The notes under the pieces: model-generated
Told to the model about the DNA's origin: nothing
The model's database searches: none
The model's input: the letters and a program-made list of their open reading frames with translations, nothing else
In this document: positions 1-4,724 of the stretch, one piece after another
Numbering within the stretch: the stretch's first letter is position 1
How the letters are laid out: each line of letters starts with the position of its first letter
Translations under genes and position numbers: made by a program
From: a virus
Lineage: Duplodnaviria > Heunggongvirae > Uroviricota > Caudoviricetes
Length of the DNA stretch: 4,724 nucleotides
Virus record (IMG/VR): IMGVR_UViG_2671180422_000001
Strand: one strand, 5' to 3'

Positions 1-9
1 GAATGCCAT
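1..9 (-). CDS. tfa: First three codons (Met-Ala-Phe) of a probable tail fibre assembly (Tfa-like) gene, truncated by the window edge
   Basis: ATG (complement of 7-9) overlaps the stf stop as TAATG; ATG-GCA-TTC gives MAF, the N-terminus I recall for lambdoid Tfa proteins; position immediately downstream of stf is the canonical one. Only 9 nt are visible. Confidence 0.3.
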
Positions 10-3000
10 TATGCAAGCCTCACAATATAGTTAAATGCGATGTTTTTGACGGTGTTTTCCGCGTTACCAGCAGCGTTAACGGTGATGGTGTGTCCATGTG
101 AGCCAATCGCAACGGAGTGCGTATGAGCACCAATACCGACAGTATGTGCATGTGCGCCTGCGCTTGCAGCAGTGCCGGACAGCGAGTGGGTATGAGCACC
201 ATCTGATGATGTCTTCCCTGCATTACGAGTCTGGCCACTACCGCTTGTTGTGCTCATAATCCCCGCGCTTGGATTTGAAATCGCGGTATAACCATTAGGG
301 AAAATGCTCGTGTTCGTGCCACCAAATGCACCGGAACTCTTGTGTTGGTGCGCACCGGCACTATTTGCAGTCCCGCTAATACTATGGGTATGCGCCCCGG
401 TGTTATTCGTGGATTTGGTTCCGTAATCAAACGACGATGTGTTTTTCGTCCCCAAATCCGTACTGGATGCGCTGGCGCTGTGGGTGTGCGATTTAATGCC
501 GTCCTGTTCCTGAGATAATACGGCTCGACCACTGGCAGGTTTGCCCTTAATCGTCCAGCCACGCATATCAGGGATCACGCCTGACGGATAAGCGGCTGCA
601 AGTTTTGGGTAGGCAGATTTGTCAAAAGTCTGCCCCTGCATCAGGGCATAACCAGACGGAACGGTATCTGATGGCCACGGGATTGGTGCACCGACTGGAT
701 AAAACTCTGCAGGAGGATGAGCCGAGGTGTAAAGCTGCGCCCAACCACTTTCAAAACCATAACCGTCTCTTGAAGAACGGTAGAACAGACCACCATTTCT
801 GTAATGCGCCTTCATCTGCAGGGTCCGGCAACTTCCGACTCCGGTATAGAAGTTAACCAGAATATAGCTGTCGCCAGAGCGGGTGACATTGTAAGCGCCT
901 GATTCGGCATTCCATGGAACGCCCCCATCCGCATCGGCATACGCATCCGTTGCTCTTCTGGCAAAAGCAGCCACATGCGCGGCGGTTAAAGTGATATCAG
1001 TAGAACCATCAAATGGAACACCGGATATTTTTCTTGCAGTCTGAAGTTTTGTAGCAGTTGCAGCATTACCAGTGGTGTTCTGATTACCCGTAGTGTTTAC
1101 ACCTGGAAGGTTAATATTTGCAGAACCGTCGAAAACAACTCCACCGATAGATCTTGCCGTCTGCAATTTCGTGGCTGTACTTGCATTACCATTCAATGAA
1201 CCAGTTAATCCACCTGTAACAGACAACGGACCTGAAACTGTTCCTCCGGTTGTTGGCAGTGCTCCAATATCTAACGGCGTCGGTTTCTGATGTGTGCTAT
1301 ACATCGTATAAACAACACCATCGGTAACGCTGGAAGGCTTACTCGCTGAATATGTTGGCGATGTATAAATAGAAACTGTCGCATTTGCAGTACAATCCCA
1401 ATGGATATTTACACGAGTCGCATAATTGCCAATCTCAACGTAAATATCATATGTATCGCCGGATGTGTTGATCCAGGCGAAATTCGTTAATCCGACGGCT
1501 GTACGCTTCCACAAAGCCCCGGTAATTCCTTTGGGGTTTCCATTGCCTGCTCGTAGAACCAGTTCTGAAATGCCTGCCTGATGTGGGGAACCGACGTTGT
1601 AACCAGCGCCACCAATCAATGCGATGTAAACGATGGAACTCGCTTGTGGCATGGTAACCGTAGCCAGTTTGAACCACCCAGCCCCGCCAGAGAAAGACAT
1701 CGTTACTGAATTTAAAGTACCAATATCTTTCGGCGTTAATGTTATATCCGCAGTCAGTGCTTTTCCGTTAACTTTTCGGTTAGATGGCACCCTGCTATTC
1801 GCATTGTCATTGGCTGCTTTAACTGCTTTTGGCGTTGCGGCCAGCGATTCACTGGTGCTATCAACAGCACTGCTAAGTTTCACAACACCTTTAGTTGTAA
1901 GGCTTGCGTCTTCCATCGCAACTGCACCGGCAATCTCTTCAGCACGATCAGCAGCAGCTTCCGCACGGGTCGCAGCGGATTCAGCAGCAGTTTTGCTCTG
2001 AGATGCTGCCGTCGCACTGCCTGCCGCCTCTGTTGCTTTCGTGGATGCCGTCGTGGCGCTGCCCTTCGCTGCTGACGCCTGTCTGGTCGCCTCATCTTTT
2101 GAAGCAGACGCAGATGATGCCGATGACGCTGCCGAACTGGCGGACGATGCGGCTGCCGTTTTTGAGGATTCTGCACGGGTTTCCGACGCTTTCGCATTCG
2201 TTTCGGATGTCTTCGCTGCGGAAGCAGACCTCGCTGCTGCGCTGGCCTGTACAGCGGCTTCGCCAGCCTTCGTTGTGGCTGTTGAAGCGGACGATGCAGC
2301 ACTTTCTGCCGATTTTCCGGCGGCGGTGGCACTGGCTGAGGCCTGCCCGGCACTTGTTGACGCGGCACTGGCAGACGACGCAGCCGCTGTTTTTGAGCCT
2401 GCCGCAGCCGAGGCGCTCTGTCCCGCTGCCGTTTCAGAAGACCTGGCGTTTGTCTCAGACGTCTTTGCCGCCTTCGCGGAATTGCCTGCCGCCGTTGCCG
2501 AGGAAGCGGCACTACTGGCGCTTGATGATGCGTTCGTTTCTGATGATTTCGCTGCCTCTTTTGAGGCCGCCGCATCCCGGGCTGAGGTGGCTGCTTCTGA
2601 CGCCTTCGTGGTCGCGGCGGATGCAGAAGTGGCTGCTGATTGTTGTGACGCTGCCGCATTCGTTTCTGACGTTTTCGCCGCAGCGGCACTGGTAGCTGCC
2701 GCGCTTTTTGAGGACTCTGCAGCAGCAGCACTTTTCGATGCTTCACTGGCCTTTGTTGATGCCGTTCCTGCGCTGGAAGATGCTGACTGAGCCGACGACG
2801 CGGCCTGTCCGGCTGACGTGCTGGCTGCGCGTGCTGAGCCTGCAGCATCAGTCGCATGGGTTACCTCCTGTTCCTGTGGTTTAAACCCATTCTGGTTTTG
2901 GCTAGATTGAAAACGTGCCGGATAAAGAATCTGCATTTCGCTGATTTCACCCTTAAAAAAATTGGCCAGACGTTCTGCAAGATCGATAGATGGAACTTGT

Positions 3001-3110
3001 TCCAGTCTTTCAATACGACTCAGCGTCGCTGGATTGACCTGAACGCCAGCAGCAACATGCTGCAAAGTAAATCCGTGCGCCTTACGCACATTCCGTAATG
3101 GTGATTGCAT
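9..3110 (-). CDS. stf: Chimeric ORF: Cro/XRE-type HTH segment (aa 1 to ~85) fused in frame to a lambda-Stf-like side tail fibre (aa ~86-1033)
   Basis: Uninterrupted 1033-codon ORF with ATG at 3110-3108 and GGAGG (complement of 3115-3119) 4 nt upstream; stop TAA is the complement of 9-11. N-terminus [43 protein letters not shown] fits the Cro/C1 HTH pattern. Residues ~86-400 are Ala/Ser/Thr-rich with repeated KTSETNA motifs; two [25 protein letters not shown] tail-fibre repeats at aa 642-706; C-terminus GAPIPWPSD...[23 protein letters not shown]...[15 protein letters not shown]...[11 protein letters not shown] matches my recollection of the lambda Stf / T4 gp37-type His-rich tip. No search was run. 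Confidence 0.85.
993..1187 (-). repeat. Two copies of a ~25-aa phage tail-fibre repeat ([25 protein letters not shown])
   Basis: Reverse complement of 1113-1187 encodes [25 protein letters not shown] and of 993-1067 encodes [25 protein letters not shown]; this motif is characteristic of the phage tail-fibre repeat family. Confidence 0.65.
1911..2855 (-). repeat. Low-complexity Ala/Ser/Thr-rich coding repeat region of the tail-fibre shaft, with reiterated KTSETNA-type units
   Basis: Translation aa ~86-400 is >80% A/S/T/G/K/E; K(T/S)SETNA recurs at aa 146-152, 188-194, 216-222 and 300-306 (e.g. 2655-2675, 2193-2213); near-identical nucleotide strings gcattcgtttcNgaNgtYttcgc recur. GC-rich and repetitive, producing long shadow ORFs on other frames. 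Confidence 0.75.
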
Positions 3111-3207
3111 ATGACCTCCACATATTGCGTGATGAGCATATTATTTCACGCAAATATTTTGCGCAAGTTGATTTGCTTAACGCGCAATAAAGAAATGTAA
3201 TAAACGC
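3111..3207. promoter_or_regulatory. Divergent promoter/operator region (OR-like) between the cro::stf ORF and the repressor gene
   Basis: 97-bp gap between divergent starts. Inverted repeat TTGCGTGA (3125-3132) / TCACGCAA (3146-3153); CGCAAAtatTTTGCG (3149-3163); palindrome TTGCGCAA (3159-3166); GCGCAA again at 3182-3187. Leftward promoter candidate: -35 TTGCGC (complement of 3161-3166), 17-bp spacer, -10 TAATAT (complement of 3138-3143). Rightward candidate: -35 TTGCTT (3173-3178), 17-bp spacer, -10 TGTAAT (3196-3201), placing the transcription start at about the repressor ATG. Confidence 0.55.
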
Positions 3208-3900
3208 ATGAACATAGGAAACCGAGTCAGACAACTTCGCCAGGCGAAGAACATGAAAATCGCCGATCTCGCTGAAGCAATAGGAGTGGATGCGGCGAAT
3301 ATCTCACGCCTGGAAACAGGTAAGCAGAAACAATTCACTGAACAAGCCCTGAGTAATATTGCCAGGAGCTTAGGTGTTGATATTGCAGATCTCTTTACCT
3401 CAGACGTCAAAAGCAATACTGTATGTAAAAACAGTATTAGTGAGGATGTTGCGCAGGTGAAGGATGTATTCCGTATTGAAATGCTGGATGTCAGTGCCAG
3501 TGCGGGAAATGGCCTTATCCAGGGCGGTGATGTCATTGATGTGATTCATGCCATTGAATACAGAACTGATAATGCTGTATCGATGTTTGGCGGACGGCCA
3601 GCCAATCACATTAAAGTTATCAACGTTCGTGGGGACAGTATGTGTCCAACCATTGAGCCAGGAGATCTCATCTTCGTTGATGTCAGTATCAATCAGTTTG
3701 ATGGAGATGGTATCTATGTATTTGGTTTTGATGATAAAATTTATGTCAAACGACTGCAAATGATACCTGACAAACTACTGGTGATTTCTGATAACCAGAT
3801 TTACCGTGAATGGGGAATTACCAGCGAAAATGAACACCGGTTTATGGTCTTTGGAAAGGTCTTAATCAGCCAGTCACAAACCCTTAAGCGACACAATTAA
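3208..3900 (+). CDS. cI/LexA-like phage repressor: N-terminal XRE-type HTH plus C-terminal S24 (LexA/UmuD-type) autopeptidase domain
   Basis: 230-aa ORF, stop TAA 3898-3900. HTH IGNRVRQLRQAKNMKIADLAEAIGVDAANISRLETGK; candidate Ala99-Gly100 cleavage site (SAS-AG-NG, 3502-3507); catalytic Ser144 in VRGDSM (codon 3637-3639) and Lys181 in YVKRL (codon 3748-3750), with the same Ser-Lys spacing (37 residues) as I recall for LexA. No Shine-Dalgarno before the ATG, consistent with a leaderless transcript. Confidence 0.85.
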   Translation: MNIGNRVRQLRQAKNMKIADLAEAIGVDAANISRLETGKQKQFTEQALSNIARSLGVDIADLFTSDVKSNTVCKNSISEDVAQVKDVFRIEMLDVSASAGNGLIQGGDVIDVIHAIEYRTDNAVSMFGGRPANHIKVINVRGDSMCPTIEPGDLIFVDVSINQFDGDGIYVFGFDDKIYVKRLQMIPDKLLVISDNQIYREWGITSENEHRFMVFGKVLISQSQTLKRHN

Positions 3901-3920
3901 CCCTTACCTCCTCATCAATT

Positions 3921-3945
3921 AGCCACCCAAAGGTGGCTTTTCATT
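3921..3945 (+). terminator. Rho-independent terminator downstream of the repressor gene
   Basis: AGCCACC (3921-3927) caaa GGTGGCT (3932-3938), a 7-bp GC-rich stem with 4-nt loop, followed by TTTTCATT (3938-3945). Confidence 0.6.
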
Positions 3946-3959
3946 ACCCTTTAAATTGC

Positions 3960-4008
3960 ATATCTCGCAACAAAAACACTTGCATAATGCGCAACTTCAT
4001 TTTATCTT
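3960..4008 (+). promoter_or_regulatory. Candidate second operator/promoter cluster (OL/PL-like), rightward
   Basis: The OR half-site recurs: CGCAA at 3966-3970 and GCGCAA at 3989-3994, within TTGCATAATGCGCAA (3980-3994). -35-like TTGCAT (3980-3985), 17-bp spacer, -10-like TATCTT (4003-4008). Hexamers are weak matches; this is inference. Confidence 0.25.
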
Positions 4009-4418
4009 TCTTTCCAGACAAACAAACAAGGTACTAACAAAATTTGGTTGTAACACGGCGTATGGCACATGCGTCGTTAGCGGTCTGGGGACGTTAAAGG
4101 GGACAATCCACTCCTTGCTCGGGCAAACAAACCAGGTAGCCGGAATGTGCAAGTCAATGATGATGCTGATAAGACGCCTAACCAGCGTGGCGATTCGGTT
4201 TGACGCCTGGGAAGAGACCAGGGTGCAACGATGAGGGCATTTATGGAGCCGCGACAAAGTGTGGTGCTGTAACTGGCTAAGTGCTCTCAGCGTTGTGGTA
4301 ATCCGCGAAATGGCGCGGCGGTAAGTATGGCGGGGTTACTCTTTCCCCGTTGAGGACACCGGATTGTCAGGTTGACCATACGCCTGAGTGACAACCCCAC
4401 CACAACAGCCACTGCTTT

Positions 4419-4465
4419 GGCGGTACCAGTTTGTACCCTTGCTTCCGGCTGGTACCGCTCTTTTT
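4419..4465 (+). terminator. Candidate rho-independent terminator (plus-strand only)
   Basis: GCGGTACCAG (4420-4429) pairs perfectly with CTGGTACCGC (4449-4458), extendable by two G-U pairs; loop ~15 nt; followed by TCTTTTTAC (4459-4467). No A-tract upstream, so unidirectional. Confidence 0.45.
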
Positions 4466-4554
4466 ACAAAACAGAGAAGAGCATCACCGGACGACGGGCT
4501 CATAACCCAATCCATCCGGGCGGCTGCCACCGCAGGTGTTCTTCTCTGTTTTGT
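4466..4554. repeat. Perfect 15-bp inverted repeat ACAAAACAGAGAAGA / TCTTCTCTGTTTTGT flanking a 59-bp spacer
   Basis: Arms at 4466-4480 and 4540-4554 are exact reverse complements (15/15); flanking bases extend the pairing imperfectly (CACC 4485-4488 with GGTG 4535-4538; UUUUU 4461-4465 with GGAGA 4555-4559 as RNA). Begins right at the T-tract of the preceding terminator and ends 49 bp upstream of the next ORF start. Confidence 0.6.
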
Positions 4555-4602
4555 GGAGAAACTAACCGACCTTACAGGGTCGATATGATGAGGAGCAGCA
4601 AA

Positions 4603-4724
4603 ATGGCTAGCGAACGCAGTACTGATGTGCAGGCATTTATCGGGGAGCTGGACGGCGGCGTATTTGAAACCAAAATCGGCGCAGTTCTCAGTGAAGTCGC
4701 TTCCGGTGTGATGAACACGAAAAC
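4603..4724 (+). CDS. 5' end of an ORF of unknown function (MASERSTDVQAFIGELDGGVFETKIGAVLSEVASGVMNTK...), continuing beyond the window
   Basis: ATG at 4603 preceded by AGGAG (4591-4595) at 7-nt spacing; frame open to the window end. Two further in-frame ATGs at 4585 and 4588 lack a comparable RBS. I do not recognise the product. Confidence 0.45.
   Translation, partial: MASERSTDVQAFIGELDGGVFETKIGAVLSEVASGVMNTK

Follow-up and report, generated by a model that had tools for sequence, protein, structure and literature searches.

The 4,724-nucleotide stretch of DNA analysed here (IMG/VR record IMGVR_UViG_2671180422_000001, Caudoviricetes; hereafter the window) carries a long open reading frame (ORF) in which a Cro-like gene, cro, is fused in frame to a lambda-Stf-like tail fibre gene, stf. 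We read the junction as the scar of a co-linear internal deletion of about 30.7 kb in a lambdoid Escherichia coli prophage, and put the probability of this reading at roughly 0.9. A sequence-only reading had already proposed a deletion or recombination junction between a Cro-like helix-turn-helix (HTH) gene and a lambda-Stf-like gene, and this is borne out by the switch in homology, by the Pfam domains on the two sides and by the 30.7 kb that lie between the two endpoints in relatives.

The switch in homology is sharp. The whole window and its positions 2780-3130 (351 bases) were compared by megablast with 5,426 complete E. coli genomes, among which thousands of stf genes align up to window position 2869 while cro/ymfL loci align from 2855, 2859 or 2861 onward, the homology limits of the two parents overlapping at 2855-2869 only. 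On the cro side, window 2855-4724 aligns with the cI/cro/ymfL locus of strain ESY002 at 99.84% identity, with three mismatches of which two lie in the junction patch; on the fibre side, window 1-2869 and FDAARGOS_1286 stf share 99.23% identity. The breakpoint can be placed to the dinucleotide from the three-way alignment on the coding strand, which reads ...CAGGAAC AGGAGGTAACCCATGCG ACTGATG... in the window, ...CAGGAAC AGGAGGTAAGCCGTGGG TAATCAT... in native cro/ymfL and ...GCCCGTG AGGCGGCAACCCATGCG ACTGATG... in native stf. The last cro-specific base is the T at 2863 and the first stf-specific base the C at 2860, and because these two bracket the common AA at 2862-2861 the crossover lies within it. 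The switch had been placed at 2850-2860 inside a broader interval of 2840-2880; the crossover does fall in the latter, but 1-2 nucleotides outside the former. Alignment to intact cro and stf had also been suggested as the way to find the breakpoint and any microhomology, and it yields a perfect identity of 2 bp within a 17-nucleotide patch (2853-2869) over which the parents match at 12/17. When the cro 17-mer was scored along stf, a match this good occurred at only 2 of 3,262 positions, the stf junction site among them. In the native cro/ymfL locus the crossover position lies between the ymfL Shine-Dalgarno sequence and the ymfL GTG start, so that ymfL has been lost entirely.

Base composition changes at the same place, with a G+C content on the coding strand of 45.4% in the 249 cro-derived nucleotides and 61.0% in the 249 that follow (in 100-nucleotide windows of the plus strand, 0.64 at 2751-2850 against 0.45 at 2851-2950). 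This part of the earlier claim holds. G+C at third codon positions moves only from 0.37 to 0.43-0.48, and since this change is far smaller the jump is mainly one of amino acid composition, namely the GCN alanine and the serine codons, and not of codon usage. A comparable increase occurs within native stf, whose first 480 nucleotides go from 0.47 to 0.68, and composition alone is therefore no proof of a junction; the proof is the switch in homology.

At the protein level the two parentages are equally distinct. Pfam matches on the 1033-residue ORF are HTH_3 at residues 5-58 (E = 8.8e-8), Collar at 807-854 (E = 5.6e-12) and, at the cut-off, Phage_fiber at 902-915; HTH_3 is found in the native 86-residue Cro-like protein with E = 1.8e-9. 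The native Cro ends ...QEQEVSRG*, and the fusion keeps 83 of its 86 residues, dropping SRG and the stop, in keeping with the earlier view that the Cro domain is essentially complete. Native Stf has 1092 residues, of which the fusion keeps 143-1092, beginning with THATDAAG at residue 143. The joint is in frame and falls at residue 83/84, not at 85/86 as first read, since T84 and H85 of the ORF are T143 and H144 of Stf. Nor is there a short tail separate from the HTH protein: the 23 residues read as such are the native C-terminus of Cro and owe nothing to the fusion. The distal part has the make-up of an Stf protein, with an Ala/Ser-rich shaft, collar, fibre repeats and distal end followed by the start of the tail fibre assembly gene tfa (window 8-1), and the proximal part that of a Cro, being a small HTH_3 protein encoded divergently from a CI-like repressor with HTH and S24 domains across an operator-like spacer. 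The N-terminal tail-attachment domain of Stf (PF08400), present in partial and full relatives, has no Pfam match in the 1033-residue ORF, Stf residues 1-142 having been deleted. There are no frameshifts over the 3.1 kb of the ORF. The opposing case named by the sequence-only reading, a continuous native homologue across the joint, did not turn up: among 5.8 billion protein sequences searched with the first 185 residues none covers both halves, the best query coverage being 53%.

Two observations concern the fibre portion of this ORF. The Shine-Dalgarno sequence of ymfL, AGGAGGT (2869-2863), now stands 5 nucleotides upstream of an out-of-frame ATG of stf (2857-2855), which starts a well-signalled 325-residue ORF rich in R, Q and P in the +1 frame (1880..2857, minus strand) across the Ala-rich region; gene callers predict this same +1 frame in error-rich assemblies (P0029, P0042 and P0047). 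The stf alleles L178 and L185 of IMG/VR carry an internal deletion between repeated GCAGCCAGCACGTCAGCCGG motifs of the Ala-rich shaft, which shows that shaft length varies by repeat-mediated deletion.

Intact relatives and the deleted interval

In both ESY002 (L004) and FDAARGOS_1286 (L006), cro codon 83 and stf codon 143 lie on the same strand 30.7 kb apart, and the window is therefore explained by a co-linear internal deletion. Between cro (or its ymfT counterpart) and stf both relatives carry ymfL, replication genes, perC, methylases, rusA and Q, and further lysis genes, terminase, head and tail genes, J and lom. The FDAARGOS_1286 prophage is inserted between yjjG and prfC, and the tfa end adjoins dinI/prfC in SCEC020001. 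Remnants of the same prophage family exist elsewhere: in Survcare253 an O-like HTH gene is joined to a fragment of J, followed by lom-stf-tfa, and in SCEC020001 ymfT adjoins lom, the two having different internal deletions and the same retained ends. More than a dozen other Cro::X chimeras were found in E. coli assemblies, where X includes Rz, PerC, RusA, LexA-like, YmfL, Q, a Pin-like recombinase and the Stf C-terminus, and the contigs recovered show a cI-cro'::X layout like that of the window. The protein search behind these inherently selects endpoints in cro. Internal deletions that end in cro are a common route of prophage decay.

The mechanism we propose is that a single RecA-independent illegitimate recombination joined cro codon 83 to stf codon 143, either by a microhomology-guided template switch during replication or by microhomology-mediated end joining, and that the window would then lie in the middle of a "grounded" (defective) lambdoid prophage of the family with arms yfdP-yfdQ-yfdR plus int on one side and J-lom-stf-tfa on the other. 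The deletion took out all that lytic growth requires (ymfL, Q, J, lom, the 5' end of stf, and the genes for replication, lysis, terminase, head and tail) and spared the cI repressor, the operators and the early-left operon. At the junction and its counterparts discussed below we found microhomology of 0-7 bp, flanks that resemble each other imperfectly, and the bases of the left parent retained at mismatches upstream of the crossover. To judge from these features, the anatomy would be of the RecA-independent, illegitimate type, and chained junctions resemble serial template switching. Both halves are at least 99.2% identical to intact relatives and the 3.1 kb hold no frameshift, which suggests a recent event.

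Several points weigh against this reading. ESY002, the best match on the cro side, and FDAARGOS_1286, the best on the stf side, are different prophages with different immunity or fibre modules, and no single intact parent was identified. The 2 bp of microhomology fit template switching and end joining alike. Moreover, the exact junction was seen in this one sequence only and nowhere else in the collections searched: its 31-mer has no other occurrence in GTDB representative genomes, IMG/VR or JGI metagenomes, no place in the 5,426 complete E. coli genomes covers at least 80% of the 351-base query, the phage and plasmid collections lack it, and the exact 1033-residue protein has no record among 153 billion gene positions.

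That the two best matches differ would also be expected if the junction had arisen by illegitimate recombination of two different prophages with each other, or of a resident prophage with an incoming lambdoid phage, instead of by deletion within one. In ESY002 the distal fibre is a different one, made up of a partial gene for the Stf N-terminus and, after it, an S74 peptidase, and the immunity region of FDAARGOS_1286 is of a different kind (ymfK/ymfT); some Cro::X fusions join cro to P2-like or Mu-like genes, and E. coli genomes hold a median of four places matching the window. We nevertheless think this origin improbable, because lambdoid prophages are mosaic and mixed best hits are expected even from a single parent, and both the gene order and the orientation are exactly those of a co-linear deletion. 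Sister remnants at the same chromosomal locus (between int/yfdR and tfa/dinI/prfC) keep both prophage ends, and an exchange between prophages would delete or invert chromosomal genes. The absence of the 31-mer and of the exact protein from every collection searched could also suggest an assembly or read chimera that existed in no cell. Here the chances are slimmer still: 2 bp of identity are insufficient for assemblers to join, hardly any other position in stf rivals the 12/17 patch, the reading frame continues unbroken through the joint, and closed genomes contain further junctions with this stf endpoint.

Recurrence of the stf endpoint

The recurrence came to light with P0012, a Nu1::Stf chimera from a protein search without any constraint on the breakpoint. 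Its Stf part likewise starts from THATDAAG, and its DNA (L007) crosses over in the same stf AA. A subsequent scan for AACCCATGCG... with a non-native preceding base gave, in IMG/VR, a lexA-like::stf junction (L016) and gpL (codon 25)::stf on four contigs (L014, L015, L017 and L018), and in JGI metagenomes portal::stf (L137) and J::stf (L138). The gpL::stf junction occurs in 17 complete genomes, and a second Nu1::stf junction, 22 nucleotides further along Nu1, in the complete genome NZ_CM128585 (L195). Counting the window there are seven independent left partners (cro, Nu1 twice, lexA-like, gpL, portal and J), all upstream on the same strand and all joined to stf within AACCC (window 2862-2858, codon 142/143), with a microhomology of AA at five of the junctions, A at one and AACCC at one. 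In 118 sampled IMG/VR stf loci taken as a control, only two or three other junctions were seen in the 426-bp 5' part of stf, and in a second sample, anchored 750 nucleotides downstream, junctions lay scattered at -64, +10, +68 and +639, alongside mosaic variants of natural origin. Scans of the whole of IMG/VR by the same design returned alleles with single nucleotide polymorphisms, or nothing, at -8, +3 and -62, one junction at -100, and two independent junctions at the site itself. The site was searched more broadly than the control positions, so the enrichment is well supported but not precisely quantified. Recurrence of the endpoint is likely to be real, and our literature searches found no described deletion hot spot in stf.

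Other breakpoints in this prophage family are reused as well. In cro, nucleotide 240 (CAGGAA|) is the endpoint of three DNA-confirmed fusions to different partners (four at the protein level) and nucleotide 188 (CTTTA|) of another three (five at the protein level); these come from unrelated assemblies (L008, L010, L190-L193; native comparison L194, 2552-2812), and their partners include P2-like and Mu-like genes. Codon 3 of gpL (GGA-TA-TCCGG) is joined to portal, terL or ymfL, and a site in terL (GC-TA-TCCGG, near 35085 of L004) to ymfT, gpL or H (L014, L015, L138 and L197). Codon 66 of stf (L006, 45613) is joined to Nu1 or gene I (L136 and L196), and the lexA-like site serves as right partner of cro nucleotide 188 and as left partner of stf codon 143. 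Some remnants are chains of junctions with tiny pieces kept between them, such as about 65 bp of gpL or 345 bp of J. Microhomology spans 0-7 bp across the 19 junctions catalogued. In a post hoc count over 25 unique native sites, GG stands within 4 nucleotides upstream of the crossover dinucleotide at 18 (background 23%) and CC within 4 nucleotides downstream at 10 (background 18%). Since GG-N-AACC occurs 18 times in the deleted interval, this motif alone cannot account for a single hot site.

From these data one may tentatively suppose that deletion endpoints in the family are non-random, a few sites being reused to the base pair with many partners and sharing a GG-N(0-2)-WW-(CC) signature, though we hold this to be rather less probable than its opposite; the reused sites on this supposition would be stf 142/143 (GGCGGCAA|CCC), stf codon 66, gpL codon 3, terL GCTA|TCCGG, cro nucleotides 188 and 240, and the lexA-like site. 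For the window itself the corresponding proposal is a site-preferential process at stf codon 142/143: GGCGGCAA|CCCATGCG might, for example, be a place where DNA repeatedly breaks, is nicked or stalls replication, or the target of a recombinase not yet recognised. This proposal would refine the deletion reading and not exclude it. Seven junctions with different partners within one AACCC, control positions at -8, +3 and -62 without a non-native junction, the further breakpoints reused to the base, and the GG upstream of 18 of 25 native sites all speak for such a process. No known activity could be tied to the site, however, which has no unusual hairpin, no Din-type core, no Chi and a poor match to cos, and with the repeated occurrence of GG-N-AACC, the unequal breadth of the searches and the post hoc nature of the motif statistics also to be considered, we see the process as possible with odds somewhat short of even.

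A number of specific mechanisms were tried and rejected. A hairpin or cruciform finds no support, the DNA at the stf site folding no better than shuffled sequence (z-scores -0.2 to 0.9). The crossover site of a Din-family invertase (Hin/Gin/Cin/Pin) is 26 bp long with an AAACC-NN-GGTTT core and crossover at the central dinucleotide; stf reads GGCGGC-AA-CCCATG, in which the core is absent and the crossover lies 5' of CC. The register does not fit either, the Nu1 product having three A's and not the predicted four, and the lexA-like product being out of register too. A pseudo-cos was considered: AGGCGGCAACCC matches at only 7/12 the sequence GGGCGGAAGGCG, which we take to be the prophage's own cos from alignment with the lambda cos region, and at 9/12 the lambda cohesive end, GGGCGGCGACCT. 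Moreover, the prophages in which these events occurred are of two kinds as regards their terminase. Chi or Chi-like end protection was discarded, no GCTGGTGG or complement adjoining the stf site. Self-targeting by a type I-E CRISPR (clustered regularly interspaced short palindromic repeats) system was considered because an ATG protospacer-adjacent motif is present on both strands; on one strand motif and protospacer are retained, on the other the polarity of Cas3 is wrong, and both argue against it. Restriction was likewise set aside, EcoRV sites (GATATC) being present at gpL codon 3 and at the end of ymfT with no one specificity fitting all hot sites. Rpn nucleases were rejected as a site-specific cause, as they are reported to lack sequence specificity (PMC5350276).

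Compared with known processes, the junctions share features with more than one class. RecA-independent recombination at microhomology in E. coli includes replication slippage, long-distance template switching (of the type of microhomology-mediated break-induced replication or fork stalling and template switching) and alternative end joining. Like the products of such switching, the present junctions have 0-7 bp of microhomology and tiny fragments between junctions, as serial template switches leave, but base-pair-precise reuse of one endpoint with partners over about 30 kb is not predicted by the classical RecA-independent processes. Deletions promoted by lambda Int have one fixed endpoint, attP, and variable secondary sites, and Cin, Gin and Pin recombine at quasi-sites in tail fibre genes. 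Shared with these are the fixed endpoint with variable partners, the crossover within a 2-bp identity, and a site inside a tail fibre gene at the boundary of the N-terminal attachment domain; in contrast to them, there is no AAACC-NN-GGTTT core, no common att-like core and no recombinase encoded in the window. Invertases associated with stf are mentioned in the literature (PMC3945230).

Layout of the window and neighbouring genes

The features of the window are collected in Table 1. The long minus-strand ORF and the plus-strand repressor ORF are arranged divergently across a 97-bp spacer, which holds nested inverted repeats of operator type (3123-3154/3158-3189, TTGCGTGA/TCACGCAA). A promoter scan was uninformative, its one promoter-like match here (3117-3144) being no more than chance level. 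The cI-like gene equals in length the annotated XRE-family CDS (coding sequence) of ESY002 and falls within the 99.84%-identical stretch. Downstream of it a terminator scan found a terminator-like hairpin at 3921-3938, after which some 600 bp poor in ORFs precede the yfdP ATG at 4603. The window ends inside tfa on one side and inside yfdP on the other. By annotation the left arm in relatives runs yfdP-yfdQ-yfdR ... int, and by this comparison the window represents the immunity region and early-left arm of a lambdoid E. coli prophage family with yfdP-yfdQ-yfdR...int.

Table 1. Positions of the features in the 4,724-nucleotide window
Feature	Position	Strand	Basis
Chimeric ORF, 1033 residues, Cro(1-83)::Stf(143-1092)	9..3110	-	ORF list, Pfam; stop codon 9-11
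cro-derived part, codons 1-83 of 86	2862..3110	-	ESY002 cro identical except for junction-patch mismatches
stf-derived part, codons 143-1092	9..2860	-	99.2% identity to FDAARGOS_1286 stf
Crossover dinucleotide AA (TT on plus strand)	2861..2862	-	Three-way alignments; sole bases that either parent could give
17-nucleotide imperfect homology patch	2853..2869	-	Alignments; parents agree at 12/17
ymfL Shine-Dalgarno plus stf-derived ATG	2855..2869	-	Sequence, ORF list, native ymfL start
cI/cro divergent control region with operator-like inverted repeats	3111..3207		Repeat search
CI-like repressor, intact, 230 residues, HTH + Peptidase_S24	3208..3900	+	Pfam
tfa (tail fibre assembly gene), first 8 nucleotides	1..8	-	Overlaps stf stop (TAATG); tfa directly after stf in relatives
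yfdP 5' end, prophage early-left arm	4603..4724	+	Annotation of relatives; 99.8% identity to ESY002

Two TTGC...GCAAC repeats at 3956-3971 and 3980-3995 resemble the cI/cro operators and look like a left operator and promoter (OL/PL) region. Ahead of yfdP lies a strongly self-complementary leader of about 600 nucleotides with 25-nucleotide hairpin arms at 4466-4490/4530-4554, and Rfam gave no match to this region (window 3950-4602). Over the whole window the Rfam search gave nothing above threshold and only sub-threshold matches to isrG on the plus strand at 1946-2703 (at best 30.6 bits, where the gathering score is 100), lying antisense to stf in its Ala-rich part. These probably reflect homology to a prophage tail fibre segment and not a small RNA gene.

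Consequences for prophage decay

Cryptic, or grounded, lambdoid prophages of E. coli that arose by internal deletion include DLP12 (nohD-aaaD'-tfaD), Qin (nohQ-stfQ'-tfaQ) and e14. The window is like these in that the lytic and morphogenetic block is lost and the prophage ends are kept, and in that a truncated stf has acquired an unrelated upstream partner, homology at the junction being scant or absent. It differs in that its immunity region is fully intact and the breakpoint yields an in-frame Cro::Stf ORF. As an event, the deletion is of an ordinary kind, textbook prophage decay in a new instance, and only the reuse of the stf endpoint would surprise specialists.

The remnant retains an intact cI with its operators and an undamaged early-left arm, so both immunity and expression of the left-arm cargo should persist. 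The layout suggests that the chimeric ORF would be transcribed only from the rightward promoter repressed by cI, and the Cro::Stf product, having neither the Stf attachment domain nor any tail genes left to serve, is best regarded as a non-functional by-product. A single illegitimate event can thus lock a lambdoid prophage in a cI-positive, lysis-negative state while making a large chimeric ORF, which annotation pipelines would label a tail fibre gene; in gene calling and in surveys of domain architecture, such "HTH plus tail fibre" proteins should be taken for deletion scars. If the recurrence of this and several other endpoints holds, it is of greater importance: prophage domestication would follow preferred molecular routes, and there would be a natural, sequence-defined substrate for the study of RecA-independent long-range deletion in E. 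coli. Should the endpoints indeed be non-random, the grounding of these prophages would be shaped by some host or phage activity that favours certain sequences for breakage, stalling or recombination, and the junction in the window would be one of its products.

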